A stretch of 14,028 nucleotides of DNA. It comes from a virus. The position numbers and the translations under genes were made by a program. Numbering within the stretch: position 1 is the stretch's first letter; every line of letters begins with the position of its first letter. The DNA is taken from the UHGV virus genome UHGV-0127916; one strand, given 5' to 3'. The notes beneath the pieces were generated by a model, which was not told where the DNA came from, searched no databases, and worked only from the letters and a program-made list of their open reading frames with translations. Positions 1-14,028 of the stretch are shown here, in pieces.

Positions 1-2
1 CG

Positions 3-173
3 GAGCACGTCGTAGAGGCATTTAAAAAAGGTGAGCTAACACGACATCAAGTAGTAATGAATCGTAATATGGCAAGGAGTCGAGGTTATCCAGAGCGAGC
101 AGCTTGCTTCAATGAAGCACTCAAGATTATTGATGAATTAAGAAAAAATGAAAAAGAATCTGAAACAGAGTAA
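3..173 (+). CDS. 3' end of an upstream gene (partial, hypothetical protein)
   Basis: An open frame in codon phase 3,6,9... runs from the window edge to TAA at 171-173 (...ALKIIDELRKNEKESETE*). The RBS of the next gene follows 8 nt later. It is missing from the ORF track because no start codon lies in the window. Confidence 0.35.
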   Translation, partial: EHVVEAFKKGELTRHQVVMNRNMARSRGYPERAACFNEALKIIDELRKNEKESETE

Positions 174-192
174 AGAATAGAAGGAGAAAACT

Positions 193-360
193 ATGAGCGA
201 AACTAAGAAACCAATTCCGCGCACTTACCTACACGTTGACCCTGAAATCTTCAAGGTTTTATTTGCTGAAGCCAAGAAAAGGCAAATTATGGTCAGTGAT
301 TTGATGTTAGAAATCATTACTGAAGCAGCAGAGAACATCAAACAAAAAAAGGGTAAGTGA
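193..360 (+). CDS. Small ribbon-helix-helix (Arc/CopG-like) DNA-binding protein, 55 aa
   Basis: ATG at 193 is preceded by AAGGAG (181-186) and the frame runs 55 codons to TGA at 358-360. The pattern RTYLHVDPEIFKVLFAEAKKRQIMVSDLMLEIITEAAE fits the strand-helix-helix layout of RHH repressors. This is a pattern-based call only. Confidence 0.5.
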   Translation: MSETKKPIPRTYLHVDPEIFKVLFAEAKKRQIMVSDLMLEIITEAAENIKQKKGK

Positions 361-411
361 TCCTCATTCACTTTAGTAGCGCATTAAGCGTGATTTATAA
401 GGAGATTTTTA

Positions 412-1065
412 ATGATTAATGAAGAACAATTTGTAAAAGTTCCTATGTGGATTCTAAAAATAAGCCAAGTAAACGGGCATAAATTTACAGATAGTGCTAA
501 AAACCTTTACTGCTATCTGAAAGGGTTTGATCGTGCATTTCCCTCTTACGCTAAGATAGGCGATGTTTTTGGCATAACACCAAGAGCAGCAGAGGAAAGG
601 GTTAAGAAATTGCTCGAAATGGGATTAATTATAAAAGATGCACGACCAGGAAGTTCTAATGTCTATCAAGTGGTAGATATTCCACAAGAAGAAGCTAGAC
701 AAGAAGCCCAGACACAACAAGAAGCTACTGTTAAAGCTGTTCCTGATCCGCTTCCACCTACAGAAGATAATAAACAGCCTTCTTTTGATGTTCTTGATGA
801 TTGGGATGCGCCTTTGCCGTGGGAGACGGAAGAAACACCTGTTTCATCAAGTGAAAAGGTAGCTAATGATAATGAGGAGGATGTGTTAGAAAATTTTGCC
901 TCTCTTATCATCCAGGAGAAGAATACCAGAACAGGAGGAGCATCCTTTCTAGAATTTGCAACATCGTTAGCCTATAAGCACAGGTTAAAGCTACCAAATG
1001 GTATTGAGGCATATTTTGCTAAGAAACATCCCAAAGTATATGAAGACTTTGATATTCCATTTTAA
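412..1065 (+). CDS. HTH-domain protein with acidic C-terminal half; putative replication-initiator or regulator
   Basis: 217-aa ORF with AAGGAG at 399-404, 7 nt before the ATG. The N-terminal ~90 aa resemble winged-HTH domains of phage/plasmid Rep or regulator proteins; the rest is acidic and Pro-rich. The function is inferred. Confidence 0.75.
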   Translation: MINEEQFVKVPMWILKISQVNGHKFTDSAKNLYCYLKGFDRAFPSYAKIGDVFGITPRAAEERVKKLLEMGLIIKDARPGSSNVYQVVDIPQEEARQEAQTQQEATVKAVPDPLPPTEDNKQPSFDVLDDWDAPLPWETEETPVSSSEKVANDNEEDVLENFASLIIQEKNTRTGGASFLEFATSLAYKHRLKLPNGIEAYFAKKHPKVYEDFDIPF

Positions 1066-1076
1066 TAAGGAGGGTT

Positions 1077-1355
1077 ATGATTCAATATTTAGTAAAAAAT
1101 CAAGTAGACAGAATTCAGTGTAATGACACAGGAAAACGCATCTACGAAACACTTGCTTACCTCTATAAAGGAAAGCCAACACCGCTAAAATATAGCGATG
1201 TGTTACATCGAGCAGCTTGCTCTGAAGATGGTTTAAAATTCTGGCTTAGACAGCTATCAAATTTCGGTGTTATAGAGATTAAAGAATTATCTTTCTCTAC
1301 ATTCAATCTCAAAAGACTAGATAAAGAAATAGAATTCATCTATTCCACTCTCTAA
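1077..1355 (+). CDS. Hypothetical protein, 92 aa
   Basis: ORF with AGGAGG at 1068-1073 just upstream of the ATG, starting 12 nt after the previous stop. No recognisable motif. Confidence 0.7.
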   Translation: MIQYLVKNQVDRIQCNDTGKRIYETLAYLYKGKPTPLKYSDVLHRAACSEDGLKFWLRQLSNFGVIEIKELSFSTFNLKRLDKEIEFIYSTL

Positions 1356-1487
1356 AATCTCTCTATGTAATTAAAATATAAAAGGAAAACATTATTATGA
1401 TAGTAGCTATGTATTGGTTATTGTTCTTTATCACGTTAGAAGCATATTTCGGGGTGTTTTCCTTTAAAAGAAAAGGAAAAGTAAATA

Positions 1488-1898
1488 ATGGCAAAAAGAA
1501 AAAACAACGTTGTTAAGAAAATCGGTGATTCAGCTTCTCTTCTAAGTAAACCTAAATCTATTCTAAGACGCAAAGACTTTAAAGAGCTAGTTACGCTCAC
1601 CAAGCAAAATAGCGCCCCTGGCGAATGGAAAACAGAGATCATAGAACATTCTCCCTCTGTGCCTTGTGGAGATGAATTTAACGCCTTACAAGAAATCTTA
1701 TCTTCAACACCTGGCGTATTCTGGAAACCTAGAAAAAGAAAAGAGTATATCGTTGATAGCTCTGATTTACGCAAATACCAGATTTTAGGATTTGAAGATT
1801 ATAATCACTACGTCGGTTATCTCGCCACCAATGGCCTAAATAATTTAGTCCCTGAATTCCAAATTTTAGATGGTGCTGATCACTATGGAGACTTTTAA
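1488..1898 (+). CDS. Hypothetical protein, 136 aa (basic N-terminus)
   Basis: ORF with AAGGA at 1473-1477. It is in the same orientation and tightly packed with its neighbours, and its stop at 1896-1898 abuts the next start. Confidence 0.65.
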   Translation: MAKRKNNVVKKIGDSASLLSKPKSILRRKDFKELVTLTKQNSAPGEWKTEIIEHSPSVPCGDEFNALQEILSSTPGVFWKPRKRKEYIVDSSDLRKYQILGFEDYNHYVGYLATNGLNNLVPEFQILDGADHYGDF

Positions 1899-1899
1899 T

Positions 1900-2238
1900 A
1901 TGAACAAAAACACGTATGACACAATTTACTCACTAATTAATTATTATGAGGATGATTACCTCCTGCCTTTAAACCGTGCTGAACTTGAAGCATACAGAGA
2001 AAACACGCCAGCGGCACTCAATGAGGCGTTTAAACACTGGGATTTAGCTGTGAATGCCTTGGAGCAACTCTCTAAGCGTGTAGAGATGCTCTGTAAGCGT
2101 GAGAACGCATATCTAACAGCGGATCAGATATGGGAGCTATCAAACTGGATAGAAGATATTGAATCTGATGTTCGCTATGTGGGAGATGGCCTTATCGAAC
2201 TAGCTCAACGCTTAGGCGCTGCTATCACAGAAGAATAA
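1900..2238 (+). CDS. Hypothetical small acidic helical protein, 112 aa
   Basis: I prefer ATG at 1900 (MNKNTYD...) over the ORF-track start at 1870, because GGAG at 1888-1891 sits 8 nt upstream and the previous gene ends at 1898. The protein has about 24 Asp/Glu against 11 Lys/Arg. Confidence 0.65.
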   Translation: MNKNTYDTIYSLINYYEDDYLLPLNRAELEAYRENTPAALNEAFKHWDLAVNALEQLSKRVEMLCKRENAYLTADQIWELSNWIEDIESDVRYVGDGLIELAQRLGAAITEE

Positions 2239-2267
2239 AAAAAGCAACAAAAAAGTTGTAAAATATC

Positions 2268-2296
2268 TTGACATTTCATATATTGTATGTTAATAT
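2268..2296 (+). promoter_or_regulatory. Near-consensus sigma70 promoter: TTGACA, 17-nt spacer, TGn-TAATAT (extended -10)
   Basis: TTGACA at 2268-2273, a 17-nt spacer, TG at 2288-2289 and TAATAT at 2291-2296, with an A-rich tract upstream. It lies in a 350-bp non-coding gap and faces the downstream operon. Confidence 0.6.
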
Positions 2297-2496
2297 AATT
2301 ATATAGGGGTGATTATTTTTCCTTTATTGGTTCGATATTAAAAATTCTTCTTGTCGTTAAAGGGGAGTAAAATCTCCGCTCCCCGCTTCTCCTCCTTAAG
2401 TAAATACTGTGTCATTATTACCTCTTTTTTCCTTTGTTATGCATACATCTTGGAGTATGCATAACATAGGGTAATTACATAGGTACAAGTTAATAA

Positions 2497-2526
2497 AAGG
2501 CGGCTTTAAATGCTGCCTTTTATTTT
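2497..2526 (+). terminator. Intrinsic terminator inside the leader, about 200 nt downstream of the promoter
   Basis: 8-bp stem AAGGCGGC / GCTGCCTT with one G-U pair and a 7-nt loop TTTAAAT, followed by TTATTTT. Confidence 0.5.
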
Positions 2527-2588
2527 GCCCGTTATGCAACTTAAAAGTTGTATTTCTTACTTTAAACAAGGTAACAAGGTTTATATAA

Positions 2589-2801
2589 ATGTTGTTCTTA
2601 AATGATAAAGAGCAAATCATCAAGTATAAAGATGAAATGCTGAAAATTAATCCACAAATTACCGAAATGGTAGCTAAATACGCTGGGTGTTCTGTAGAGG
2701 AAGTAGAAAGATGTGTTGAAAAATATTTTTCTCCTTCTTCTCCGTCTACACCTTCCCTTAATGAATTAATCAAATTAAAAGCTAAGGAGATTACTAAATG
2801 A
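2589..2801 (+). CDS. Hypothetical protein, 70 aa
   Basis: ORF whose stop overlaps the next start as ATGA (2798-2801), suggesting translational coupling. Its own RBS is weak (AAGG about 11 nt upstream). Confidence 0.5.
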   Translation: MLFLNDKEQIIKYKDEMLKINPQITEMVAKYAGCSVEEVERCVEKYFSPSSPSTPSLNELIKLKAKEITK

Positions 2802-3160
2802 TTATTGATTTAGACACTCTGTTTCCAGTTCGAAAGACTTTCACAGATATTGTAAGTTATTGTACTGATCCGTTTGCCTCTGTAGAAAGCAAGGTTTTTG
2901 CTTCTCTTCCTGCTGATGTTGAATGCGGAGACTTGATCACCAGCACTGGCGCTAAATATGAATCAGGAGATGATATTTATGTTGTTATGAGTGAATTTGT
3001 AACGGCTGGAGAAAACAAGCCTGTAGATGTGCTACGTAGCAATGCTGGCCTTGTATGCATCAAAGCTGATGCGCTGAATGCTGTAAGTGAAGCAGCAAAA
3101 ACAGCACTAATTAAAAAAGGCTTTCAGCTTGAAGGCTTCCATTCTGTTTTCACTTCTTAA
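2798..3160 (+). CDS. Hypothetical acidic protein, 120 aa
   Basis: AAGGAG at 2784-2789, 8 nt before the ATG; coupled to the upstream ORF. Confidence 0.7.
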   Translation: MIIDLDTLFPVRKTFTDIVSYCTDPFASVESKVFASLPADVECGDLITSTGAKYESGDDIYVVMSEFVTAGENKPVDVLRSNAGLVCIKADALNAVSEAAKTALIKKGFQLEGFHSVFTS

Positions 3161-3178
3161 TAAAAGGAATAATAATAA

Positions 3179-4207
3179 ATGATTCTAGGTAATGATTACG
3201 TTGATTTAGCTCCTCTGTTCTCTGCGCATAGCACTAGAAACTATCTGCTTTCTACTCTTGATTTTACGGATTCTGTAGGGGTCACATCTCATAAAGTAGC
3301 TGTTTCCCAGCTTGTCGAAAGCAACGAATCTCTCTTTAACAAAGAGACAAGCCGTTTTAGTTCTGAACACAATGTTACTAAGCGAGAACAAGGTAAAGAA
3401 TGGCTGATTGAAATCCCGTATTTTCTTCGTGAAGATGTGATCCGTCCTTCTGATGTTCAAGGCAAGCGTAAGCCTGGCACTGATTTTCAGGAAACACTTA
3501 CTGATATCTATGCTGACTATGTTGCTAAACACCACGTAGCGTATCAGCGTACAAAAGAGAGCGTATTGGCTGCATCTCTGTTTAGTGGTCGCACCTACAC
3601 GCCTAAAACTGATGATGTTCTTATCGAGTGGGGCAAGCTGTTTAACGTATCAGCTATGAAAGCCACTGTGAACGCTTCCAGCACTGACACCACGAAGATT
3701 TTTAAAGAATTTGATCAGATTGCTACTGACATTATCGAAAAAGCACAAAGCCAGGCGGCTGCTGTAGAGCGTATTGTTGTTTTCTGTAAACCGGAAGCCT
3801 TCTCTGCAATTCGATTCTCTGCTGGTATGGCAAACGCATTCCAGTATGTAAGCCCACTGGAAGAAGGGAACGTTGTGTATCAGCGTCGTGACCTGCTGCC
3901 AGGAGTGACAGCGTTCACTATTCCAGGAACTAACATTGATGTTATTAAACTGGTAGATCCGCTACACCTGGCACATATGACCGCAGACGCTGTAGCTGTG
4001 CCTAAATTCGCTAAAGGCTCTAACGTATATCAGAACATCTACGGGGCTGCTTCCAGCACCTTTGAACTGATTAATGCCGCTCCTGCTGAGGTGTATAGCT
4101 ATAGCTATGAATCTTCTCGTGGTGATGCTGTTAACGTTGTTACAGAGAATAGCCAGATGGTTGTAAACCACGGTGTAGGCTTCTCCGTTCAAATCACTGT
4201 TAAATAA
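3179..4207 (+). CDS. Hypothetical protein, 342 aa; possibly a major structural (capsid-like) protein
   Basis: Long ORF with an RBS and no nucleotide-binding or catalytic motif that I can see. It is followed directly by a very strong intrinsic terminator, as highly expressed structural genes often are. The structural assignment is speculative. Confidence 0.8.
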   Translation: MILGNDYVDLAPLFSAHSTRNYLLSTLDFTDSVGVTSHKVAVSQLVESNESLFNKETSRFSSEHNVTKREQGKEWLIEIPYFLREDVIRPSDVQGKRKPGTDFQETLTDIYADYVAKHHVAYQRTKESVLAASLFSGRTYTPKTDDVLIEWGKLFNVSAMKATVNASSTDTTKIFKEFDQIATDIIEKAQSQAAAVERIVVFCKPEAFSAIRFSAGMANAFQYVSPLEEGNVVYQRRDLLPGVTAFTIPGTNIDVIKLVDPLHLAHMTADAVAVPKFAKGSNVYQNIYGAASSTFELINAAPAEVYSYSYESSRGDAVNVVTENSQMVVNHGVGFSVQITVK

Positions 4208-4225
4208 TATTTTAACGTGTAATAG

Positions 4226-4260
4226 AGGCGTGGCGTGTATTCACGCTTCGCCTTTTTTTT
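4226..4260 (+). terminator. Strong rho-independent terminator (attenuator) after the 342-aa gene
   Basis: GC-rich stem of about 11 bp (GGCGTGGCGTG / CACGCTTCGCC, one mismatch, one G-U) with loop TATT, followed by T8 at 4253-4260. Confidence 0.75.
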
Positions 4261-4293
4261 ATTTATTTTTAAATTTTGAGAGGTGATTAAAAT

Positions 4294-4497
4294 ATGGAAG
4301 TGATTTTGAAATCAAAAAATGGGGTGCACGTACATTTAGATGCTAATGATTCTAGAGGCTTGTTAAATCTGAAATATCTATGTTCTCTCTTAGATGTGCC
4401 CTATGAAGGCGTAAAAGCCCGTATGTTCAGATTAAACGAGAGTATTGATCAGGCTCTACACCATTTCTTAAGTAAAGAAGGTGGTAAAAATGATTAA
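4294..4497 (+). CDS. Hypothetical protein, 67 aa
   Basis: ORF with AGGTGA at 4281-4286, 7 nt before the ATG. Confidence 0.55.
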   Translation: MEVILKSKNGVHVHLDANDSRGLLNLKYLCSLLDVPYEGVKARMFRLNESIDQALHHFLSKEGGKND

Positions 4498-4513
4498 TAT
4501 AAGGGGATTTTAA

Positions 4514-6343
4514 ATGTTAGAAATTAACACTTCTAAAATTAAGAACACAGTTACATTTAGTGTAGATAAAGACAGCTTGAAAAAAGCGAAAGACTCTATT
4601 ACAAGCCTAAAAGAATTCACTGATAATATCAAGCCAGCTAAACTGAGGTTTGATAATGTCACTAAAGGCTATAAGAAAGCACAAAGCGAAGTAGACAAGA
4701 TTGCTCAACAGAAAGCTAAAACAGAAAAGCAAAATCAAAGAGCACAAGCTGCCGCAGCAAGAGCACAGGCAAGGCAACAGCAACAAATAGCAGCACGTAA
4801 AGAGAAAGCAGAATTAAAGCTCCTCGATGTTTCAAGCTCTATCAGTGCAATGCACCGCCTCTCTGTAGCGGAACAATACAAAGCTATTGCACAGGCTAGA
4901 GAGATAGCGAAACAATACGAACAAGGCGCTATCTCGCTTGCACGTATGAATAGCCAGATGAAACGCTTACAACAGCAACAACGTAAGATTAATGGCAACA
5001 GAAAAGCTCAATTAGCCCCCGTTAAGGGAGGATCAGGGAATTCCGCCACGATGGGCGCTCTGTTATTTGGAGGCGCTACGGCGGCGGCTGGCGTGATGGC
5101 TGTAAGTAAAGCCTCTGAATTTATGGCTAACAGCTTTGCTAACGCAGAGACACAAGGAGAGCTAATCCAACGTGCAAGGCTTGGCGGTGTAGACGTTAAC
5201 CAGATGTATAACATTACAGAATGGGCGTATAGAAACGGCGTTGACTCTATGATGGGTGATCAAGGGGCTAGGAAATACCTGGATCAGATGAAAGATGTTA
5301 GGGAACGTGCCGCAAAATCCTACAGTGAAGCTGAATTGGTGAAAGATAAGAAAACCGGAAAATCTGAATGGAAAGGCGGTGATAACGCTATTAATGAACT
5401 TCTAAACATCGGAGTTATTAACAAAAGCGACCTTAAAAAATTTGCTGATAATCCAGCCGGATTAATTTCTAAGGCTGTTAATGGAATGATGAAAAAAGGG
5501 TTTTCAGACTCCCAAATTGGACAACGTTTAGAAGACCTGGGCGATGATTTGATGCTTACATCAAAATATTGGCAACGTTCCGTTAAAGATGTACAAGAAA
5601 GTATTAATCAGCAAAAAGCCTCTGGAAAATGGCTAACAGAAACACAGCAAGAATCTATCGTTAAATTCAGAGAGCTAAACAGACAGCTTTCACAGCTTTC
5701 TGATGCAAGACAAGTAGCATTCGTAGACGGCTTTATGAAATCTCTTGATCCAAAAGTAACGGAAGAGTTTATGAAAAACCTTTCTAATCTCACTCCGTAT
5801 TTTACGAAGCTAGGAGAAGCTACAGGAAGTCTCTTTGAAGCTATTATGAAGATTGTAAACTGGTTTAATCGTAATGATGATAAGACAGATGCTATTCAGA
5901 AAAATATGGGTGATGCACCGCCATTAAGCAATGAAGGAATGAAGCAGAATCTTTCTAAGCTCGTTCCTGACCAATATAAAGGCGCTGGCACTGCAACAAC
6001 TACACCTGATAATAGTCATTCTCTCTTTAACACGATTAAGGGATTGCTTTTCGATGATAATTCTTCTGTGTCAGATGTAAAAATGTCAGTCAGCGAAGCA
6101 CCGATAACCAATCTCAAACAGGGGGCTTTAAATAATCTTGCAATGACAACTCCGGCTTATAATTTATCTCCTGTATTCAATCTGAATCCTACATTTGAAG
6201 TGGTAACGGAGGTTCCGCTTACTATTAATTCTGACACATCCAGATTAAGCGATTATGTGGATTTTACAGCGAGAGCAAGTCGGGATAGCTTCTTGAAATC
6301 ATTAACATTAACCAGCTTGTCAGGACAATCTAACGGCGGGTAA
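4514..6343 (+). CDS. Hypothetical 609-aa protein: N-terminal Ala/Gln-rich coiled coil, Gly/Ala-rich hydrophobic segment, large C-terminal domain (tape-measure- or ejection-protein-like)
   Basis: AAGGGG at 4501-4506, 7 nt before the ATG. Features read from the translation: QNQRAQAAAARAQARQQQQIAARKEK, then GGSGNSATMGALLFGGATAAAGVMAVS. No enzymatic motif recognised. Confidence 0.8.
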   Translation: MLEINTSKIKNTVTFSVDKDSLKKAKDSITSLKEFTDNIKPAKLRFDNVTKGYKKAQSEVDKIAQQKAKTEKQNQRAQAAAARAQARQQQQIAARKEKAELKLLDVSSSISAMHRLSVAEQYKAIAQAREIAKQYEQGAISLARMNSQMKRLQQQQRKINGNRKAQLAPVKGGSGNSATMGALLFGGATAAAGVMAVSKASEFMANSFANAETQGELIQRARLGGVDVNQMYNITEWAYRNGVDSMMGDQGARKYLDQMKDVRERAAKSYSEAELVKDKKTGKSEWKGGDNAINELLNIGVINKSDLKKFADNPAGLISKAVNGMMKKGFSDSQIGQRLEDLGDDLMLTSKYWQRSVKDVQESINQQKASGKWLTETQQESIVKFRELNRQLSQLSDARQVAFVDGFMKSLDPKVTEEFMKNLSNLTPYFTKLGEATGSLFEAIMKIVNWFNRNDDKTDAIQKNMGDAPPLSNEGMKQNLSKLVPDQYKGAGTATTTPDNSHSLFNTIKGLLFDDNSSVSDVKMSVSEAPITNLKQGALNNLAMTTPAYNLSPVFNLNPTFEVVTEVPLTINSDTSRLSDYVDFTARASRDSFLKSLTLTSLSGQSNGG

Positions 6344-6376
6344 TTCCCGCCATAACATTACAAGGAAATTATTATT

Positions 6377-7090
6377 ATGGCGACCGCCGGGATTTTAACC
6401 ATACGTGCAGCAAATACTCCAGAACAACACGTTCAAGCGGTTTATAACGCGGAACAAGATATAAACTCTACAAAAAACGAAAATAGCAAAGCCAATAAAA
6501 CAAAAGGAGAAAATGGATTTGCTATTGTTACCAGTGGGCTGGCATCTTCTGGTAATGACGTTTATGAAAATTATATGGCACTGGCCTTTGACAGTGTAGA
6601 CGATGTAAACGTAAAACGTCAAGCAGATGTTACTAGCTACCCCGTAGAGAATGGTGCTACTGTATCGGATCACGTTCAAATTAAAAACAATAAGTTTGCT
6701 CTTAAGGGGCGTATCACTGAAACACCGATTAAAAGCGATCCTGGCTTGTTAAAGAGTGCAGGGGTGAACGGGAACAGAAGATCATTAGCTATAGACTACC
6801 TGAATCAGATTATGGACAGTAGACAGCCTTTTCTTCTTGTTACAGAAAATAAAACTTTTGAGAACGTTGTTTTAACAGGCATCGAATACACAGAAGAGGC
6901 AAGCGAATCCCTGGTATTTGATCTTAGCTTTGAGCAGATCAGGCTCGTTTCGTATGGCACAGTAAACACTGTAGCTATCAAAACACAGCCATCTAAGAAC
7001 ATCGGGGCTAATATGAAAAAACGTGTTAACACTGAAAAATCAAGTAGTGAAGGTGAAGACACTATTACGCCTGCCTTTAAACAGGAATAG
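6377..7090 (+). CDS. Hypothetical protein, 237 aa
   Basis: ORF with AAGGA at 6362-6366; last gene of the rightward array, ending 80 nt before the convergent integrase gene. Confidence 0.75.
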   Translation: MATAGILTIRAANTPEQHVQAVYNAEQDINSTKNENSKANKTKGENGFAIVTSGLASSGNDVYENYMALAFDSVDDVNVKRQADVTSYPVENGATVSDHVQIKNNKFALKGRITETPIKSDPGLLKSAGVNGNRRSLAIDYLNQIMDSRQPFLLVTENKTFENVVLTGIEYTEEASESLVFDLSFEQIRLVSYGTVNTVAIKTQPSKNIGANMKKRVNTEKSSSEGEDTITPAFKQE

Positions 7091-7131
7091 CCGTAAACGC
7101 CTCTAAAACACTCTGTAACGATGTAATTATA

Positions 7132-7164
7132 AAAGAGGCTACCAATCTATGTTGAAGCCTCTTT
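7132..7164. terminator. Putative bidirectional terminator between the convergent operon and the integrase gene
   Basis: 9-bp stem AAAGAGGCT / AGCCTCTTT with a 15-nt loop, in the 80-bp gap between the stops at 7090 (+) and 7172 (-). The loop is large and the U-tract weak. Confidence 0.4.
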
Positions 7165-7171
7165 ATTGCGT

Positions 7172-8443
7172 CTATGGCGTTGTTTTACGCCTTAAATTTG
7201 ATTTTTTATTGATTGATAAGCCTTTCTCTATTTCAGGGTAGCGTAGAAGCTCAATATAGTTTTTAAGCTCTACTGGAGAAGCTGCATTCTTGCTATATGT
7301 GCGGAATGTCTCTGTATTGCCGCGTGTATGGCCCAGGAGAAGGGCGATCCTGTCTTCTGGAATTTGATTTCGATCAAGAAGCTGTGCTACTCCGTGTCTC
7401 AGAGAATGAAACACCTTCCTTTCTGTTCCCTTTTCCCCTAAAGCCTTTCGTTTAGCTCTTGTAAATCTCTGCGTGTGCCACGTGGAACGTTTACCATCAG
7501 CACGCTCTGTAATGCTGGCGTGATAGAACAAAAAGCCATTATGAGGCTTTTCACGAAGAGATAACACCAATGGAGTGATAAGGCTATGCACAGGCACAAG
7601 ACGTGCCGCAGCTTTCGTTTTTCCCTGTGTGATTTCAAAACACAGCACACCTTCGATCTCTTTCACATCGTCTATTGTGAGACTTGCTATCTCATTGATC
7701 CGCATACCTGTATACATTCCGATCAGTGTTATATTTTGCATTTCTTCTTCATCAGCCAGCATTGAGAACACTTTTGCGAGTTCATCATTGCTAAAGGCTT
7801 CATAATTCACCTTGCTACTTTTAGCTTCAAGGCCGTGACCTCGCCAAGGGTTATCTTGTGGTGCATCGTGGTAGCGGTTACGAGCAAGATCCCAAATCTG
7901 GGCTAATGCACTAATGTAGTTTTGTATTGTTTGTGGTGCTTTCTCATTTTTTAGGTTATCTAACCAGCTAGTAACAATAGTTCGGTTAACGTCACGAAGC
8001 TGAACATCGCGTTTATTCAGATGTTCTAAGAGCACCTCTACGGCTTTGTTTGTCTTTGATAGCGTAGTTAGCTTGCGCTTCTCGCTAAACTGGAGAATGT
8101 ACTGATCCCGCATATTTAAAAGAGAAGGGCAGCCAATAGAAGAATCATTAAATGATTCAGATACTTGAAATGCATATGTTCCAGCTTTCCGTAGTTCTGT
8201 AATAATTTGCTCGATCTTCGATGTTTTCTCACGTTGAGGCTTTAGCTTGTTACGTAGTTTTATCCATTCCAGCGCCACCGCATCACGGAACAACCGTGCT
8301 TCTCGAATATCTCTTGTGCCTGTGCTTTTAACGTAGCTACACCGCCCACCAAATAGATGACGCATATACTTAGGTATAGCGATCCTTACCAGATAGTTTC
8401 CGCAAGAATCTGAAATTAAATAACGATCTCTCTTGAAACTCAT
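7172..8443 (-). CDS. int: Tyrosine-type site-specific integrase, 423 aa
   Basis: The C-terminal half shows the tyrosine recombinase catalytic pattern: Arg in TGMRINE, HSLRH (H-x-x-R), LLGHTRGN and the Tyr in FRTYSK. It lies directly beside the tRNA-derived att core. Confidence 0.9.
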   Translation of the reverse strand: MSFKRDRYLISDSCGNYLVRIAIPKYMRHLFGGRCSYVKSTGTRDIREARLFRDAVALEWIKLRNKLKPQREKTSKIEQIITELRKAGTYAFQVSESFNDSSIGCPSLLNMRDQYILQFSEKRKLTTLSKTNKAVEVLLEHLNKRDVQLRDVNRTIVTSWLDNLKNEKAPQTIQNYISALAQIWDLARNRYHDAPQDNPWRGHGLEAKSSKVNYEAFSNDELAKVFSMLADEEEMQNITLIGMYTGMRINEIASLTIDDVKEIEGVLCFEITQGKTKAAARLVPVHSLITPLVLSLREKPHNGFLFYHASITERADGKRSTWHTQRFTRAKRKALGEKGTERKVFHSLRHGVAQLLDRNQIPEDRIALLLGHTRGNTETFRTYSKNAASPVELKNYIELLRYPEIEKGLSINKKSNLRRKTTP

Positions 8444-8564
8444 ACAAACCCCGGCTATTTTGTCAGGGCTTTTGCACTTGATAGTGTACAGTGTGAAGTG
8501 TCGATGTGTTGTTAGTTTTGCTTTTGATTCAAAGCATTACAGGAGCTTGCTAGGCAAGCGAACG

Positions 8565-8607
8565 ACCGTAGAAATACGTGCCGGTTCGAGTCCGGCCTTC
8601 GGCACCA
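8565..8607 (+). other. 3' fragment of a tRNA-Leu gene (leuX-like); attR-type core, not an intact tRNA
   Basis: ACCGTAGAAATACGTGCCGGTTCGAGTCCGGCCTTCGGCACCA contains a canonical T-arm (GCCGG / TTCGAGT / CCGGC), the acceptor 3' strand CTTCGGC, discriminator A and CCA. No complementary GCCGAAG 5' acceptor strand occurs within about 120 nt upstream. As I recall it, this matches the 3' end of enterobacterial tRNA-Leu(CAA). Confidence 0.6.
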
Positions 8608-8624
8608 CATCGTATGCAAATCGA

Positions 8625-8647
8625 GTCGCTCAAGGGCGGCTTTTTTT
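8625..8647 (+). terminator. Intrinsic terminator 17 nt after the tRNA 3' end (orphaned tRNA terminator)
   Basis: Stem GTCGC / GCGGC (one G-U pair) with loop TCAAGG, followed by T7 at 8641-8647. Confidence 0.5.
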
Positions 8648-8831
8648 GTGTCTGGGATCCGTTAGTTACCTATCTTTCTCGCTATTTTAACTCTCTCAGG
8701 GCTAACCAATTCCAACCCATCGCAAACGAAAAATGTTGGTACAGGCGTTGGTATTTTCGGTTCGATATTAATTTGTATTAGCTCAGTCCTGATCTGACAG
8801 CTATCTGCCAGATCAGGTTCGGATTAATACA

Positions 8832-11800
8832 TTATATCTGCCCGCCTACACCTTTAAACTTCTCAATAAACGCGACGATCTTCTGGAAAACCGTCTGTTT
8901 TTTCGTCTTATATTGCGGATTTAACGGACTGAGTTTTGGCAATGTCTCGTTTAATTCCGTGCCATTTTCGGTGGCGTATTCACGTTTTAAAGACGTGCGA
9001 ATATAGCGTTTCGCCGCCTCTTCATTGAGATTTTCTTCTTTGATCAATGCTGCTGCTTCACGTTGCTGTTCACGTTGAGCAAAGGTAAAAAACGCGTCAA
9101 TGATGCTGGCTTTATCCGGCAAATCATCCAGGTTCGTTTGCTGAATAAAATCGACCACCAGACCCTCTTTCGCACGGTTCCCAAGGCTTGAACGAATTAA
9201 GCGTTTGACCTCTTCGGTCATTTCGCCCTTACCTTTGTTTTGTCTGTTGTGTTCGAAAATAAGTCCAAGGATATAATCCAGGTTTATTTCCTGAGACTTC
9301 AGCAAATCGACCTCAAAAACAACGTCATCCCAGTCAGTGGTTGATTTTTCTTTTTTCTCGGCTTCTTTCTCACGGCGCTGCCAGTCACGAATATCGTTAT
9401 AGGCAGAACGATAATCCTGAATCTTGCGAGCAGCAGGGAGACGAATTGTTTGCAATTCAGCGAGCTTTTCATCATCCACATAATGTTCTGCTTTGAATTT
9501 TTCTACCGCAACAGGATCGCTAAGATCGATTTGTTGCAGGGCTTTCAGCGTGGCAAATTCATCATAGTTTTGCAGGATGTTCTCGGCACGCAGGTATTCA
9601 CCAAACAGTTTAACGAAGTCTTTCTTCTCTTTTTCACTTTCAATACTGGCAGGGTCAGGGAACCGTTGTTCCAGTTCTGAAACTACTGTCATAAAGCCGC
9701 GTTTAGCTTCACCGGTGGTAGCATCAGTAAAGCCTTCCATATACTCTGCATAACTCTTTTCTAACACCACATTTTTGGTGTTTTTGTCACCAAACAGCGT
9801 TATGGCATCAATAGTTGAGCGTTCCAGATCCCGAAAAGTGACGATGTTACCGAAGGTTTTCGTAGCGTCATAAATGCGGTTGGTGCGGGAAAATGCCTGC
9901 ATCAGGCCGTGAAAACGCAGGTTTTTATCAACGAATAGCGTGTTCAATGTTGGAGCATCGAATCCGGTTAAAAACATCCCCACAACGATTAACAAGTCAA
10001 CATCCTGATTTTTAACCCGCTGAGCCAGGTCCCGATAGTAGTTCTGAAACCCCTTGCTATCAGTGCTGAAATTCATTTGAAAATGTTCGTTATACTCACG
10101 AATAGCGGCATCCAGAAACTCTTTAGCACTGCTGTCCATTGCACTGGTATCAAAAGTTTCATCGGAAACTTCACCAATGGCATTTTGTTCTTCATTAGCG
10201 GCAAAGGAGAAGATTGTCGCAACACGTAGTGGTTTATAGGTAGCAGATTTATTAGCGGCTTCCTCTTGTAACCGTTTAAACGTCGCGTAATAGGCTTTCG
10301 CGGCATCCACGCTGCTCACTGCCAGCATGGCATTAAAACCTTTGGAGCCGGGGTAAGTACGGTGGGTCTTCTGGCGGAAGTTGTTCAGGATATATTGCGT
10401 GATTTCCTGAATACGCATGGGATGAAGAAACGCCTGCTGATTTTCAGCCGCACTCAGTTTTTTCTCGTCAGTTTCTGTCTCTAAAGACTTAAACTGTGGC
10501 CGCACATCGTTGTAGTCCACCTTGAATTTGAGCACTTTTTCATCACGGATCGCATCGGTAATCACATACGAATGCAATTCACGGCCAAATACGCTGGCAG
10601 TCGTTTCTGAGCCTAAAGCGTTTTCCGGGAAAATAGGGGTACCGGTAAAACCAAACTGATAATAGCGTTTGAATTTCTTCTTCAGGTTTTTCTGCGCTTC
10701 TCCAAACTGGCTGCGGTGGCATTCATCAAATATAAACACCACTTGCTGATTGTATACAGGCAGGTCGCTTTCTGCTTTCATCAGGTTATTAAGTTTCTGA
10801 ATAGTGGTGACGATAATTTTGTTATCGTCCTTATCCAGATTTCGTTTTAGACCTGCGGTATTTTCCGAGCCGTTGACGCTGTCTGGCGAAAAACGCTGAT
10901 ATTCCTTCATGGTCTGGTAATCGAGGTCTTTCCTGTCGACCACAAAGAAAACTTTATCAATAAAGTCCAGTTCTGTTGCCAGCCGCGCGGCTTTAAAGCT
11001 GGTGAGGGTTTTACCAGAACCGGTAGTGTGCCATATAAAGCCACCGCTTTCGGGGTTAGACCAGTTTTTCGCTTTATAGGAGCTGTTGATTTTCCATAAG
11101 ATTCGTTCGGTAGCTGCAATCTGGTACGGTCGCATCACCAGTAGTGTCTGGCTACTGTCAAACACGCTGTAGTTCACCAGAACATTAAGCAGGGTATGTT
11201 TCTGGAAAAAGGTAGCGGTAAAGTCTTTGAGGTCTTTTATCAGCGTGTTGTCTGATTTCGCCCAGTTCATGGTGAAGTCAAAACTGTTTTTATCGCGCTT
11301 TGTGGTGTTGGCAAAATAACGGGTATCTGTGCCGTTAGAAATGACAAACAGTTGCAGATACTTAAACAGGGAATTTTCGCTGTTAAAACTCTCTTTACTG
11401 TAACGATGTATCTGGTTAAAGGCCTCACGAATCGCCACGCCGCGCTTTTTCAGTTCGATTTGTACCAGTGGTAAGCCATTAACCAGGATCGTGACGTCAT
11501 AACGGTTAGCATGAGAACCCGCCTGTTCAAACTGCTGGATAATCTGCACCTTATTGCGCATGAGATTCTTTTTATCTATCAGATAGATGTTCTCAAGACG
11601 CTCGTCATCAAAAATAAAGTCGCAAATATAGTCGATATGGATTTTACGGGTCTTATCCAGAATGCCATCGCTCGGGTTATCCAGATACTGCTCCGTGAAA
11701 CGCCGCCACTCGCTGTCATTAAACACCACACCATTGAGGCTCTGAAGCTGTTCCCGAACGTTGGCCAGCATCGCTGACTGTGATTTTACGGGTATAAATT

Positions 11801-11948
11801 CATAGCCCTGATTTTGCAGGTCCTGAATCAGTTCACGTTCCAGGTCCGATTCGCTCTGGTAGCTGTCGCCTGTTGGCTCAGCTTTGATGTACTTATCAAG
11901 AACGATAAAGTTATTGGATTCAGCAATGGTGTGTGTCTGATGAGTCAT
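8832..11948 (-). CDS. hsdR: Type I restriction enzyme R subunit (HsdR), 1038 aa; type IC/EcoR124-like by recollection
   Basis: PD-(D/E)xK nuclease motif (D...VQIELKK), helicase motif I TTGSGKT and motif II FIFDECH. The length and the N-terminus [14 protein letters not shown] match my recollection of EcoR124I HsdR. RBS AAGGA precedes the ATG. Confidence 0.95.
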
Positions 11949-12069
11949 AGCGCATCCTTTGTGCCGTCTGGCAAGGACCGGAAGGGGGGTAATGGTGACT
12001 TCCGGCGCGTAAAAAATAGTCTATATACTGACCGGGCGTTAAGGTGGCCCGATCGGTAGCAATGGTCAA

Positions 12070-12594
12070 TTAATTACTGACAGTTTCAGGTTTCGGGAAA
12101 CTGAACAGTAAATCACGGTAGTATTCGTATTGTTTCTGGCGCAACTCGATTTCACGCGGAAGACCTTCAGTGATGGAGTTGGTCAGGGTGTCGAATTTAT
12201 CGAGTATTTCGACAATGCGAGCTTGCCAGGTGAGTGGCGGTACAGGGATTGGGTATTTCATTATATCCTCTTTACTGCCACGCGGCATTTTTGCTCCTTT
12301 AGCATGCTGCATGTTGTATTCAAAGAATTTGTCATCTGCCAAAATCTGATATAGATATCTGGTATTTATTGAGCTATCTATGCAACGAATAACCAATACA
12401 TCGCCATTTGTTCCACCGATACAATCTGCTTGCCAAATTTTTTTCAAATATGGGCGGATATTCCCAATCAATATATCGTTAGGTATAAACTCCGTTAATT
12501 TACCTGATGTCGGTACATGATTAGATAATGATTTTCCTGCTCTGTTTTGCAGCAGATTATCTACGCCAACATAGATGATATGACCTTTATATAC
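12070..12594 (-). pseudogene. hsdS: Truncated hsdS: C-terminal ~174 codons (TRD2 plus conserved C-terminal helix) of a type I specificity subunit
   Basis: The frame is open from 12594 down to the stop at 12070-12072. The translation ...NDILIGNIRPYLKKIW...YPIPVPPLTWQARIVEILDKF...LRQKQYEYYRDLLFSF carries HsdS target-recognition-domain and C-terminal motifs. The N-terminal half is missing; the frame hits a stop at 12595-12597 inside the IS-proximal sequence. The ORF-track start at 12471 is a TTG. Confidence 0.75.
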
Positions 12595-14024
12595 TCACTA
12601 TAGCATTGGTGGGATATTCCAGAGGAGGTCATCATGCATTCGGAAAATATTGCGGCTTACGTCGGGCTGGATGTGCATAAAGAAACGTTGGCGGTTGCTA
12701 TTGCTGCACCTGAACGGCTTGGCGAAGTTCGTTATTATGGTACGATTAACAACGAAGCCCAGGCTGTACGTCGATTATTTCAGAAATTGCAGGGACTTTA
12801 CGGAAACATTCTTTCCTGCTATGAGGCTGGCCCCTGTGGTTTTGGGCTATATCATCAACTCACAGCGATGAATATAAAATGCCAGGTTATTGCCCCTTCC
12901 CGCATACCAAAATCACCGACAGACAGAATCAAAAATGATCATCGGGACGCAATTTCTCTCGCCAGGTTACTGCGGGCTGGAGAACTTACCCCTGTCTGGA
13001 TCCCTGACCTGACTCATGAAGCTATGCGGGATCTAATCAGAGCCCGTGCAGCAGCTAAACGAGACAGCAGAGTTGCCCGACAGCGAATTCTGAGCATGCT
13101 ATTGCGAACAGACAAACATTATGCAGGAAAGCACTGGACAGGAAAACATCGAACCTGGTTAGCTAATCAATCATTTAGTCAGCCATCTCAACAGATTGCT
13201 TTTCAACACTATTGTCAAAGTCTGGAGCAGATTGAAGATCGCATACTTCAACTCGACCAGGAAATATCTCGCCTGTTACCTGAGTGGTCTCTGTGCAATC
13301 TGGTCTGCCAGTTGCAGGCTCTTAAAGGTGTTGGTCAGCTAATTGCAATAACTCTGGTTGCTGAACTGGGTGATTTTTCGCGATTTTCCAATCCCAAACA
13401 GCTCATGGCTTTTCTGGGACTGGTGCCAGGTGAATATTCCAGTGGAAACAGTATTCGTCCCAGAGGAATAACAAAAGTTGGAAACAGCGAACTGAGACGT
13501 CTGCTTTACGAAGCCGCCTGGTCTTATCGTACACCTGCAAAAGTTGGGGCATGGCTTATATATTACCGACCGGACTCTGTAACACAATATTCCAAAGATA
13601 TTGCATGGAAAGCTCAACAACGATTGTGTTCTCGTTACCGAAGTCTGACAGCAAAAGGGAAAAAATCACAAGTAGCCATTACGGCGGTGGCTCGTGAGTT
13701 GACTGGATTTATGTGGGATATTGCACTTGCTGCCCAATCATCATTCAGTCAGCAGAAGCAAAATTAAACCCTGAAGCAGTCAGACACGGAATGAGTGATC
13801 CTCGTAAAAGAATTCAGGGAAGCCAGAATGCGCTAATACCTGCACGTAGAAAGAGGCCAGCTCACTGCGTAAATCGTCATGGGGCTAAAATCCCCGAATA
13901 AGAGTTTGTAAAATCCAAGATACAGTCTGACTGTTTCAGGTTCTTTAATCCGCGATATAACGAAGCTCCCGGAGCTGCGTAAGGTCTTTTTGGGCTTAAT
14001 ATTTGACAAAGGTCATAAGAATTC
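12572..14024 (+). mobile_element. IS110-family insertion sequence (IS1111-like layout); boundaries approximate
   Basis: Contains the DEDD transposase gene. A 10-bp inverted repeat TATGACCTTT (12579-12588) / AAAGGTCATA (14008-14017) brackets it. It has a short 5' end and a non-coding 3' end of at least 240 bp, and it interrupts hsdS. Confidence 0.6.
12634..13767 (+). CDS. IS110-family transposase/recombinase (DEDD RuvC-like N-domain plus C-terminal Tnp domain), 377 aa
   Basis: N-terminus YVGLDVHKETLAVAI and C-terminal LKGVGQLIAITLVAELGDFSRFSNPKQLMAFLGLVPGEYSSGNSIRPRGITKVGNSELRRLLYEAAW are hallmark IS110-family segments. GAGGAGG RBS lies 5 nt before the ATG. Confidence 0.95.
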   Translation: MHSENIAAYVGLDVHKETLAVAIAAPERLGEVRYYGTINNEAQAVRRLFQKLQGLYGNILSCYEAGPCGFGLYHQLTAMNIKCQVIAPSRIPKSPTDRIKNDHRDAISLARLLRAGELTPVWIPDLTHEAMRDLIRARAAAKRDSRVARQRILSMLLRTDKHYAGKHWTGKHRTWLANQSFSQPSQQIAFQHYCQSLEQIEDRILQLDQEISRLLPEWSLCNLVCQLQALKGVGQLIAITLVAELGDFSRFSNPKQLMAFLGLVPGEYSSGNSIRPRGITKVGNSELRRLLYEAAWSYRTPAKVGAWLIYYRPDSVTQYSKDIAWKAQQRLCSRYRSLTAKGKKSQVAITAVARELTGFMWDIALAAQSSFSQQKQN

Positions 14025-14028
14025 TTTT

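Follow-up and report, generated by a model that had tools for sequence, protein, structure and literature searches.

Does a type I restriction system whose specificity gene has been interrupted by an insertion sequence (IS) keep a function, and if so, which part of the broken gene would provide it? The question is posed by a 14,028-nt stretch of DNA (hereafter, the window) in which an hsdR gene lies next to a piece of hsdS that ends where an IS begins. The original prediction read this arrangement as a type IC system left with a half hsdS, whose surviving C-terminal part might confer a changed, symmetric specificity. We conclude that positions 12070–12573 are very probably what is left of the 3′ end of a chromosomal hsdS of the EcoR124 family in the leuX defense island, non-functional and split off by a single ISEc45 insertion. 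This is an ordinary gene disruption, routine in defense-island turnover.

A type IC hsdR next to a truncated hsdS

The left flank of the IS comprises the following features:

8565–8607, plus strand: 3′ 43 nt of tRNA-Leu (leuX), an att repeat
8832–11948, minus strand: hsdR, intact, encoding the type IC restriction/translocase subunit (1038 aa)
11949–12069, minus strand: hsdS–hsdR intergenic region, presumed site of hsdR's own promoter
12070–12573, minus strand: hsdS 3′ remnant, 167 codons plus stop, with ~80% of TRD2 plus the conserved helix at the C-terminus (D2)

The att repeat, recognized by its identity to the tRNA-Leu of E. coli NC101, divides a phage-like integrative element (1–8564) from the defense island. 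From 8565 to 14028, the window is 100% identical to positions 4666–10129 of NC101 L001, where a tRNA-Leu is annotated at 4624–4708; ARAGORN detected no complete tRNA within the window.

As predicted, hsdR is full length and encodes both nuclease and helicase motifs. All 1038 residues align end to end with EcoR124I HsdR (PDB 2w00_A; 2255 bits), Pfam assigns the domains HSDR_N, SWI2_SNF2, T1R_D3-like, and EcoR124_C (the last at 3e-71), and the catalytic motifs D151/E165/K167, QIHRY, GSGKT, DECH, TGTP, and RTNR are all there. The same protein (WP_000149658.1) is also found in genomes with an intact hsdS. Possession of its own promoter is a general rule for hsdR (Murray 2000, as cited in PMC10030836), and such a promoter presumably lies within 11949–12069, where a consensus scan returned no strong sigma-70 site.

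The type IC assignment likewise held. Besides an EcoR124-type HsdR with the C-terminal domain of that family, the locus has the conserved regions of a type IC HsdS—the C-terminal helix (…LPREIELRQKQYEYYRDLLFSFPKPETVSN) inside the window and the central TAEL region, which related loci have immediately past the IS—and HsdS aligns with EcoR124II HsdS (7bst_A; E = 4e-74). With EcoR124I and EcoR124II of plasmid R124, the system shares HsdR length and the full-length match, essentially identical N-terminal, central (TAEL-repeat), and C-terminal conserved regions of HsdS, and the gene order hsdM–hsdS–hsdR. It differs from them in being chromosomal, in the leuX defense island (hotspot 37; PMC12707154), and from EcoR124I in its IS-interrupted hsdS and in both TRDs, which are unrelated, so that its specificity would not be that of EcoR124I.

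The remnant itself matches Pfam Methylase_S (E = 2.3e-13). Eleven complete E. coli genomes have an intact hsdS whose 3′ end matches all of its 504 nt at 100% identity, and the translation of the remnant equals residues 242–408 of the intact HsdS WP_042041695.1. We placed the junction with the IS, with a 1-nt 'A' ambiguity, by aligning the window with PG20180057, a strain whose allele is uninterrupted. The prediction of a C-terminal hsdS fragment cut by an IS next to full-length hsdR thus stood in outline and needed correction in two respects. The fragment had been drawn from 12070 to 12633; hsdS accounts for 12070–12573, while 12574–12633 belong to the left end of the IS, identified as ISEc45. 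The fragment had also been credited with TRD2 and the terminal helix. The D2 helix is indeed intact, as seen in translation and alignment, but the first 30 residues of TRD2 (KEGEVEWKTLGEVAQYSKTRISFELLDEKN), including the conserved EVEWKTLGE strand, lie on the far side of ISEc45. In the NC101 annotation, PGAP lists the remnant as a pseudogene 'missing N-terminus' (L001 8171–8674); both hsdS halves are already labeled pseudogenes there by PGAP/RefSeq.

The remaining genes of the operon in related genomes

Past ISEc45, the window continues for eight nucleotides:

14021–14028, minus strand: first 8 nt past ISEc45 (ATTCTTTT), the point at which the hsdS 5′ part resumes in 12 related genomes

From 8565 or 8900 through 14028, the window has 100% identical counterparts in 13 complete E. 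coli genomes, among them NC101 and NGF1. All 13 have kept an hsdS 5′ part (TRD1, central helix, and 30 aa of TRD2) together with an intact hsdM, which does not support the notion of a system left with half an hsdS. In 12 of the 13, these genes abut ISEc45 directly; in CUVET21-PYO5, they reside ~177 kb away, owing to an inversion between two ISEc45 copies. The order hsdM–hsdS–hsdR is found in 12 of the 13 as well as in all intact alleles. As judged from these sequences, the system is hsdM–hsdS::ISEc45–hsdR and no orphan hsdR with a half hsdS. The 13 genomes are relatives of the genome from which the window derives, and since the last eight nucleotides are compatible with the hsdS flank as well as with the IS66-tnpC flank of rearranged genomes, the continuation past the IS in the source strain is an extrapolation.

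Neither of the two findings that the original prediction had named as telling against it, lack of hsdM or a second intact hsdS serving this hsdR, was encountered on the 13 carrier chromosomes. In a blastn search confined to these chromosomes, the 504-nt fragment, family-conserved helix included, hit a single place in each, and we therefore rejected a second chromosomal type IC hsdS.

Uninterrupted hsdS alleles with the same TRDs occur in strains PG20180057 and PAR. Strains carrying the split allele share identical HsdM and HsdR proteins with strains whose hsdS is intact, and split-allele islands differ from intact-allele islands by 0–2 SNPs over ~15 kb. Among complete genomes, the split allele is present in at least eight distinct strains, from mouse, human, dog, and river sources in the USA, Japan, Thailand, and India. 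A whole-window search found no complete genome spanning the phage-like element together with the IS junction, none of the retrieved loci had this phage-like element in leuX beside this hsdR, and exact-protein look-ups of integrase and HsdR returned many contexts, none with this combination of element and junction.

ISEc45 and a look-alike target in hsdS

The element that interrupts hsdS has the following parts:

12574–14020, plus strand: ISEc45, 1447 bp, IS1111-type, IS110 family (12573–14019 is equally possible, given the 1-nt 'A' ambiguity)
12580–12588, plus strand: left sub-terminal inverted repeat ATGACCTTT, reverse complement of 14008–14016
12634–13767, plus strand: DEDD transposase of ISEc45 (377 aa; Pfam DEDD_Tnp_IS110 and Transposase_20)
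13768–14007, plus strand: non-coding region 3′ of the transposase gene, candidate seekRNA region with putative guides at 13804–13814 and 13843–13852
14008–14016, plus strand: right sub-terminal inverted repeat AAAGGTCAT, read from the sequence

Its ends were set by the alignment to the uninterrupted allele and by five other insertion sites. RefSeq names the transposase 'IS110-like element ISEc45 family transposase', and the start of its sequence agrees with ISEc45 as listed in the supplement of PMC11187229. The two transposase domains are those of the IS110 family; sub-terminal inverted repeats define IS1111-type elements (PMC11187229), and ISEc45 has these as well as a long non-coding stretch from the transposase gene to its end (253 nt, 13768–14020). 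ISEc11 and other IS1111-type ISs likewise have a DEDD transposase, sub-terminal repeats, and a ~250-nt downstream non-coding region, and they too choose targets by sequence and cause no target duplication.

Insertion of ISEc45 left no target duplication. The hsdS junction is scarless apart from the 1-nt ambiguity, and joining the left and right flanks yields an open hsdS of 408–420 aa. The target site in hsdS, …ACATA|ATTCTTTT…, closely mimics the usual ISEc45 target: five further ISEc45 junctions have flanks of the type AC(A/G)TA|ATT(C/T)TT or a close variant, and the common target lies in the IS66-family tnpC gene. On this comparison, hsdS is an occasional look-alike site, hit because the coding sequence of TRD2 resembles the usual target.

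Two candidate guides are consistent with RNA-guided choice of this site. The first, AAAAGAATT (13806–13814), has its complement in the top strand, spanning the insertion point and extending to the right; the second, CACGUA (13843–13848), is complementary to the bottom strand left of that point. A single predicted internal loop has one guide on each of its sides, with complementarities of 9 nt and 5–6 nt, and the top-strand match precedes the bottom-strand match, the order described for IS1111 seekRNAs (PMC11187229). The fold energy of the candidate seekRNA is no better than that of shuffled sequence (z = −0.09), an Rfam scan of the window matched no family and no bridge or seekRNA model, and a literature search on ISEc45 biology retrieved nothing relevant. 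While ISEc45 otherwise resembles the IS1111-type elements, its guides are candidates assigned by complementarity, and we infer that hsdS was targeted through a seekRNA. The hsdS site would then be a clean natural off-target of an IS1111-type RNA-guided transposase.

Consequences for the HsdS fragments

The most probable course of events is a simple one. ISEc45, as an IS1111-type RNA-guided element, would have picked the look-alike of its usual target and inserted once, ~30 codons into TRD2. The rest of the system would be complete, with hsdM and the first part of hsdS past the IS, as in the related genomes, and hsdR intact behind its presumed own promoter. The original bipartite specificity would be lost because full-length HsdS cannot be made, and the remnant in the window would be inert, lacking both a complete TRD and a translation start. 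A target-seeking IS would thereby have inactivated a restriction system in the leuX defense island, or changed its specificity.

Re-specification, were it to occur, would involve the part of hsdS outside the window. Type IC HsdS halves can homodimerize and then have symmetric specificities (Loenen et al. 2014, PMC3874165), as the original prediction correctly stated. Three precedents are described in that review: EcoR124I HsdS(Δ50), which lacks ~160 C-terminal residues, and EcoDXXI with Tn5 in its C-TRD are both active with palindromic recognition, and so is the natural NgoAV system of Neisseria gonorrhoeae. Any active half-subunit of the present system would be the N-terminal fragment, mimicking HsdS(Δ50) and EcoDXXI::Tn5. 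This fragment comprises 241–253 hsdS codons (TRD1, the whole central helix, and a TRD2 stub), the number following that of the TAEL repeats, and totals 288–300 aa including a 47-aa tail encoded by the IS. Like its precedents, it has a native start, a complete N-TRD and central helix, and a cut within the C-TRD. In an alignment with EcoR124 HsdS, the cut falls between P232 and W233, ~12 residues upstream of the Δ50 end-point, and ISEc45 thereby removes 167 residues.

Such a fragment could have palindromic specificity: homodimerizing via its central helix, it might, with HsdM and the intact HsdR, recognize the TRD1 half-site as a palindrome, and the remnant in the window would remain inert. We hold this to be a possibility to be taken seriously, albeit a tentative one. 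The start of hsdS overlaps the hsdM stop by 4 nt (NC101), which predicts that expression of the fragment is undisturbed. The unchanged partner subunits and the spread of the split allele over several hosts and countries are in keeping with an active system, as is the finding that type IC systems can become established in cells that are not yet modified (PMC12707154). However, the IS-encoded tail of 47 residues and the 30-residue TRD2 stub could destabilize the protein, in another case, truncation of an E. coli hsdS by a transposon led to nothing but loss of methylation (bioRxiv 10.1101/2020.06.07.138552), and a literature search returned no methylome or restriction results for carrier strains (NC101, NGF-1). 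Moreover, conservation of the split allele is uninformative on selection, given how few SNPs separate its copies from the intact islands.

The precedents also differ from the present case. Palindromic activity has been shown for EcoDXXI hsdS::Tn5 and HsdS(Δ50), whereas the split hsdS, from which most of the C-TRD has likewise been removed with TRD1 and the central helix left whole, is known from sequence; here, the event is natural and due to a target-specific IS1111-type element, with a 47-aa IS tail and 2–5 TAEL repeats. NgoAV, also natural and of type IC, has an hsdS whose first ORF (N-TRD) alone is complete, its C-terminal portion being partial and without activity, but this gene was fragmented by mutation rather than by an IS, and recognition of GCA N8 TGC by NgoAV has been demonstrated (PMC3874165).

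The TAEL repeat adds a further aspect. This 12-bp unit is present in 2, 3, 4, or 5 copies in otherwise identical split alleles; intact alleles have 2–3 copies only, and 4 and 5 were seen exclusively in split ones. Of the split alleles, those of NGF1 and TUM13773 have two copies, that of SCU-484 three, that of strain 998 four, and those of NC101 and FDAARGOS_1251 five; of the intact ones, PG20180057 has two, and PAR and M-17 have three. (We discarded as unreliable a tally of repeat variants across the population based on exact protein matches, which reported 292-aa and 412-aa proteins as absent although retrieved loci encode them.) The EcoDXXI::Tn5 event has been termed 'macroevolution by transposition' (Meister et al. 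1993, as quoted in PMC3874165). It is a rather unlikely but conceivable extension that the ISEc45 insertion repeats it, with a half-HsdS homodimer active on a palindrome and the hypervariable TAEL repeat as a spacer-length dial, because both helices of the homodimer would lengthen together; this E. coli lineage would then possess several type I specificities that interchange rapidly. The higher repeat numbers are equally well explained by a dead gene no longer under selection. The sequence is compatible with a dead operon as well as with a palindromic switch via the upstream half-subunit. Were that half active, it would represent a natural, widely distributed, transposon-made new type I specificity, and it would bear on the ease with which NC101, a widely used mouse model strain of colitis and colorectal cancer, and NGF1, a colonization chassis, take up foreign DNA.

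The insertion might instead be a reversible on/off switch, with precise excision of ISEc45 restoring hsdS, a phase-variation device as reportedly formed by IS492 in Pseudoalteromonas; we consider this improbable. The perfect hsdS obtained by joining the flanks would allow it, IS110/IS1111 elements do form excised circles (PMC11187229), and PG20180057, a mouse-gut O2:H6 strain, carries the intact allele in an island 0–2 SNPs apart. That allele may equally well be the ancestral state, however, and for the IS1111-type ISEc11, a re-joined empty target went undetected after circle formation (PMC11187229).

Even less credible is the proposal made originally, that the window's C-terminal fragment is made as a protein and homodimerizes to give a TRD2-based symmetric specificity. 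An engineered N-terminal deletion of EcoDXXI HsdS is an active homodimer (PMC3874165), and the D2 helix, which would serve for dimerization, is present here; yet that EcoDXXI ΔN protein had a whole C-TRD, while the remnant has lost the EVEWKTLGE strand with the rest of its first 30 TRD2 residues. Nor does its 5′ end offer a start with a ribosome-binding site. The frame entering from ISEc45 meets two in-frame stops at the IS edge, no ATG, GTG, or TTG precedes a TTG at 12471 that would give 133 aa only, and no Shine-Dalgarno (SD) sequence lies upstream of this TTG. It is therefore unlikely that the remnant fills the role of an EcoDXXI ΔN-like half-subunit, and we infer that it is not expressed, although a 72-codon ORF inside it, with an ATG at 12288 and a good AAGGAG SD, counts against the latter point. 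A promoter and terminator scan of 11800–14028 gave a single weak promoter-like match, overlapping the TTG, where 4.1 were expected by chance; at this sub-chance yield, the scan is uninformative for hsdR and for the remnant alike.

Least plausible of all is that both fragments are made and re-associate to restore wild-type specificity, as co-expressed EcoDXXI ΔN and ΔC halves did (PMC3874165), since each of those halves had a whole TRD, whereas here the gene is broken within TRD2, a globular domain, and its C-terminal part lacks a start for translation.

A type IC locus at leuX with an interrupted hsdS

The window consists of E. coli DNA and contains the following features:

1–8564, compact phage-like integrative element with genes for a replication initiator, major head protein, tape measure, Dit-like protein and integrase (the latter at 7172–8443)
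8565–8607, 3′ end of tRNA-Leu (leuX), an att repeat
8832–11948 (−), hsdR
12070–12573 (−), hsdS remnant (3′ part of the gene)
12574–14020, ISEc45, with its transposase gene at 12634–13767 (+)
13804–13814 and 13843–13852, putative segments of the ISEc45 non-coding region complementary to opposite target strands

Everything from 8565 to the right end of the window matches the NC101 chromosome (NZ_CP072787) with 100% identity. Since this identity starts inside the tRNA-Leu gene, 8565–8607 represents the 3′ 43 nt of leuX—the integration site of the phage-like element—and ARAGORN found no complete tRNA in the window. leuX is E. coli defence hotspot 37, a reported host of type IC systems (PMC12707154). 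No obvious terminase or portal gene was seen in the portion of the phage-like element covered (1–8564). The assembly collection lists an identical integrase in 157 blocks and, in the places shown, varied defence cargos adjoin it (another type I system, McrBC, Wadjet-like, DISARM-like). The window ends 8 nt past the IS, and one draft contig (L029, position 1) breaks a few bases from the IS edge, at the equivalent of window 12570; this suggests that the window was assembled from short reads, with breaks at ISEc45 copies.

The original prediction described a full-length hsdR, with intact nuclease and helicase motifs, next to the C-terminal half of a type IC hsdS cut by an IS. HsdR indeed harbors the Pfam domains HSDR_N, SWI2_SNF2, T1R_D3-like and EcoR124_C, aligns with EcoR124I HsdR over its whole length (PDB 2w00; 2255 bits), and retains all motifs (D151/E165/K167, QIHRY, GSGKT, DECH, TGTP, RTNR). 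HsdS resembles EcoR124 HsdS in its conserved regions (7bst_A, E = 4e-74), whereas both target-recognition domains (TRDs) differ; together with the HsdR match, this confirms the type IC assignment.

Upon translation, the minus-strand frame of 12070–12633 yielded an HsdS C-terminus with two stop codons ahead of it and a Methylase_S match (Pfam, E = 2.3e-13). We mapped the junction base by base against uninterrupted alleles from the complete genomes PG20180057 (408 aa) and PAR (412 aa). In this alignment, hsdS stops at 12573 and resumes at 14021, with one ambiguous 'A', and the IS consequently spans 12574–14020 (1447 bp); its flanks, when joined, give an open hsdS without duplication or scar. The predicted half gene is real, but the last 60 nt of the predicted interval belong to the IS, and the 167 residues encoded by the remnant comprise the C-terminal conserved helix and a TRD2 without its first 30 residues. 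With boundaries corrected, the observation is essentially right; the event is an IS insertion into the hsdS of a known system type, and both hsdS halves already carry pseudogene annotation.

Target site of ISEc45

Target choice by IS1111-type elements is governed by a seekRNA encoded in the non-coding stretch that follows the transposase gene (PMC11187229). ISEc45 displays several hallmarks of this type: a DEDD transposase, sub-terminal inverted repeats (ATGACCTTT and AAAGGTCAT), and 253 nt of non-coding sequence after the transposase gene. Elsewhere, ISEc45 copies occupy similar sequences, several of them within IS66-family tnpC genes.

Sequences flanking ISEc45 insertions (left; right)
IS66 tnpC: ACACGTA; ATTTTTC
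yihG-yihF: ACATA; ATTCTTC
TPM gene: CAAGAA; ATTCTTC
hsdS: ACATA; ATTCTTTT

Within the non-coding region, AAAAGAATT (13806–13814) complements the top strand, spanning the insertion point and extending to its right; CACGUA (13843–13848) pairs to the left of that point with the bottom strand, with a G·T wobble at ACATA sites. The two target-complementary segments lie opposite one another on either side of a single predicted internal loop, resembling the target-binding loop of seekRNAs and bridge RNAs, and follow the order reported for IS1111 seekRNAs (PMC11187229). The fold does not exceed shuffled sequence in stability (z = −0.09), and Rfam has no model for the region; guidance of ISEc45 to the hsdS site by a seekRNA is therefore an inference. 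ATAAGAG (13898–13904) matches the right-end/left-end circle junction of the element.

The hsdS 5′ part and hsdM in related genomes

The hsdR–hsdS 3′–ISEc45 junction is identical in 13 complete E. coli genomes, and the hsdS 5′ part and hsdM, which the original prediction had left out of sight beyond the IS, are present in all 13. In 12, the hsdS 5′ part directly follows the IS and has a 4-nt overlap with the stop of an intact hsdM; next come DUF4942, McrBC, and a phosphorothioate-dependent nuclease. CUVET21-PYO5 instead has IS66 tnpC to the right of the IS, adjoining the cnf1/hly island, and the reciprocal junction (IS66 fragment–ISEc45–hsdS 5′–hsdM) lies ~177 kb off in inverted orientation. 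This arrangement (L002 from 11130 onward, and L035) is an inversion between two inverted ISEc45 copies, in hsdS and IS66 tnpC, parting hsdR–hsdS 3′ from hsdS 5′–hsdM. A second assembly (L026) has the same right flank.

As the source strain's genome is outside the complete set and the 8 nt past the IS (ATTCTTTT, 14021–14028) are compatible with both the hsdS and the IS66 tnpC flank, placing hsdS 5′ and hsdM beyond its IS is an extrapolation. Only 0–2 SNPs across ~15 kb separate islands that carry the IS from those that lack it, rendering conservation of the split island uninformative.

Searched at blastn sensitivity, each carrier chromosome contained the 504-nt remnant once, with no second chromosomal hsdS copy bearing it. 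Plasmid records H145–H150 hold the same TRD2 and C-terminal helix, with 99.4% identity across 504 nt, in hsdS genes of large E. coli plasmids that join them to a different 5′ part; these copies exemplify the exchange of TRDs among type IC systems of chromosomes and plasmids.

Functional potential of the hsdS halves

The original prediction further proposed that the visible C-terminal half might act as a half-subunit with altered specificity. In EcoDXXI ΔN, a functional C-terminal half, the whole C-TRD was retained and an engineered start drove expression (PMC3874165). By comparison, the remnant lacks the first 30 TRD2 residues, among them the conserved EVEWKTLGE strand, and two stop codons at the border with the IS close its frame. 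Its earliest in-frame start is a TTG at 12471 without a Shine-Dalgarno sequence, and only one promoter-like match was found, below chance expectation. From the incomplete TRD2, the two stops, the unsupported TTG and the sub-chance promoter match, we conclude that the remnant is inert; a functional half-subunit made from this visible half is unsupported.

A specificity change would survive only through the N-terminal half outside the window. This fragment spans TRD1, the complete central helix and the first 30 residues of TRD2—the cut falling between P232 and W233 when aligned to EcoR124 HsdS—and runs 47 codons into the right end of the IS before a stop (288–300 aa in total). EcoR124I HsdS(Δ50), without ~160 C-terminal residues, forms an active homodimer recognising GAA N7 TTC, and EcoDXXI with Tn5 in its C-TRD recognises TCA N8 TGA (Loenen et al., PMC3874165). 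In E. coli ST101, methylation was simply lost upon transposon truncation of hsdS (bioRxiv 10.1101/2020.06.07.138552). A literature search retrieved no methylome for any carrier strain.

The 12-bp TAEL repeat of the central helix fixes spacer length in type IC enzymes. We compared its copy number across L001 10262–10321 (NC101, just past the window's right end), L003, L004, L005, L020–L027 and L030–L035. Every intact allele examined had two or three copies; split alleles had 2, 2, 3, 3, 4, 4, 4, 4, 5 and 5 with 100% identical flanks, counts that are not independent as the strains are related. Among the alleles examined, more than three copies occurred in split ones only. Relaxed selection on a dead gene would account for this variation, as would a homodimer that tolerates any length, both of its helices growing in step.

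Lastly, the remnant contains a 72-codon ORF (12070–12288, −; ATG at 12288) with a strong AAGGAG Shine-Dalgarno sequence upstream, called as a gene by some gene callers or in some assemblies. Its putative product—only the last TRD2 strand and the C-terminal (D2) coiled-coil helix—might, if made, pair with the central (D1) helix of the N-terminal fragment.
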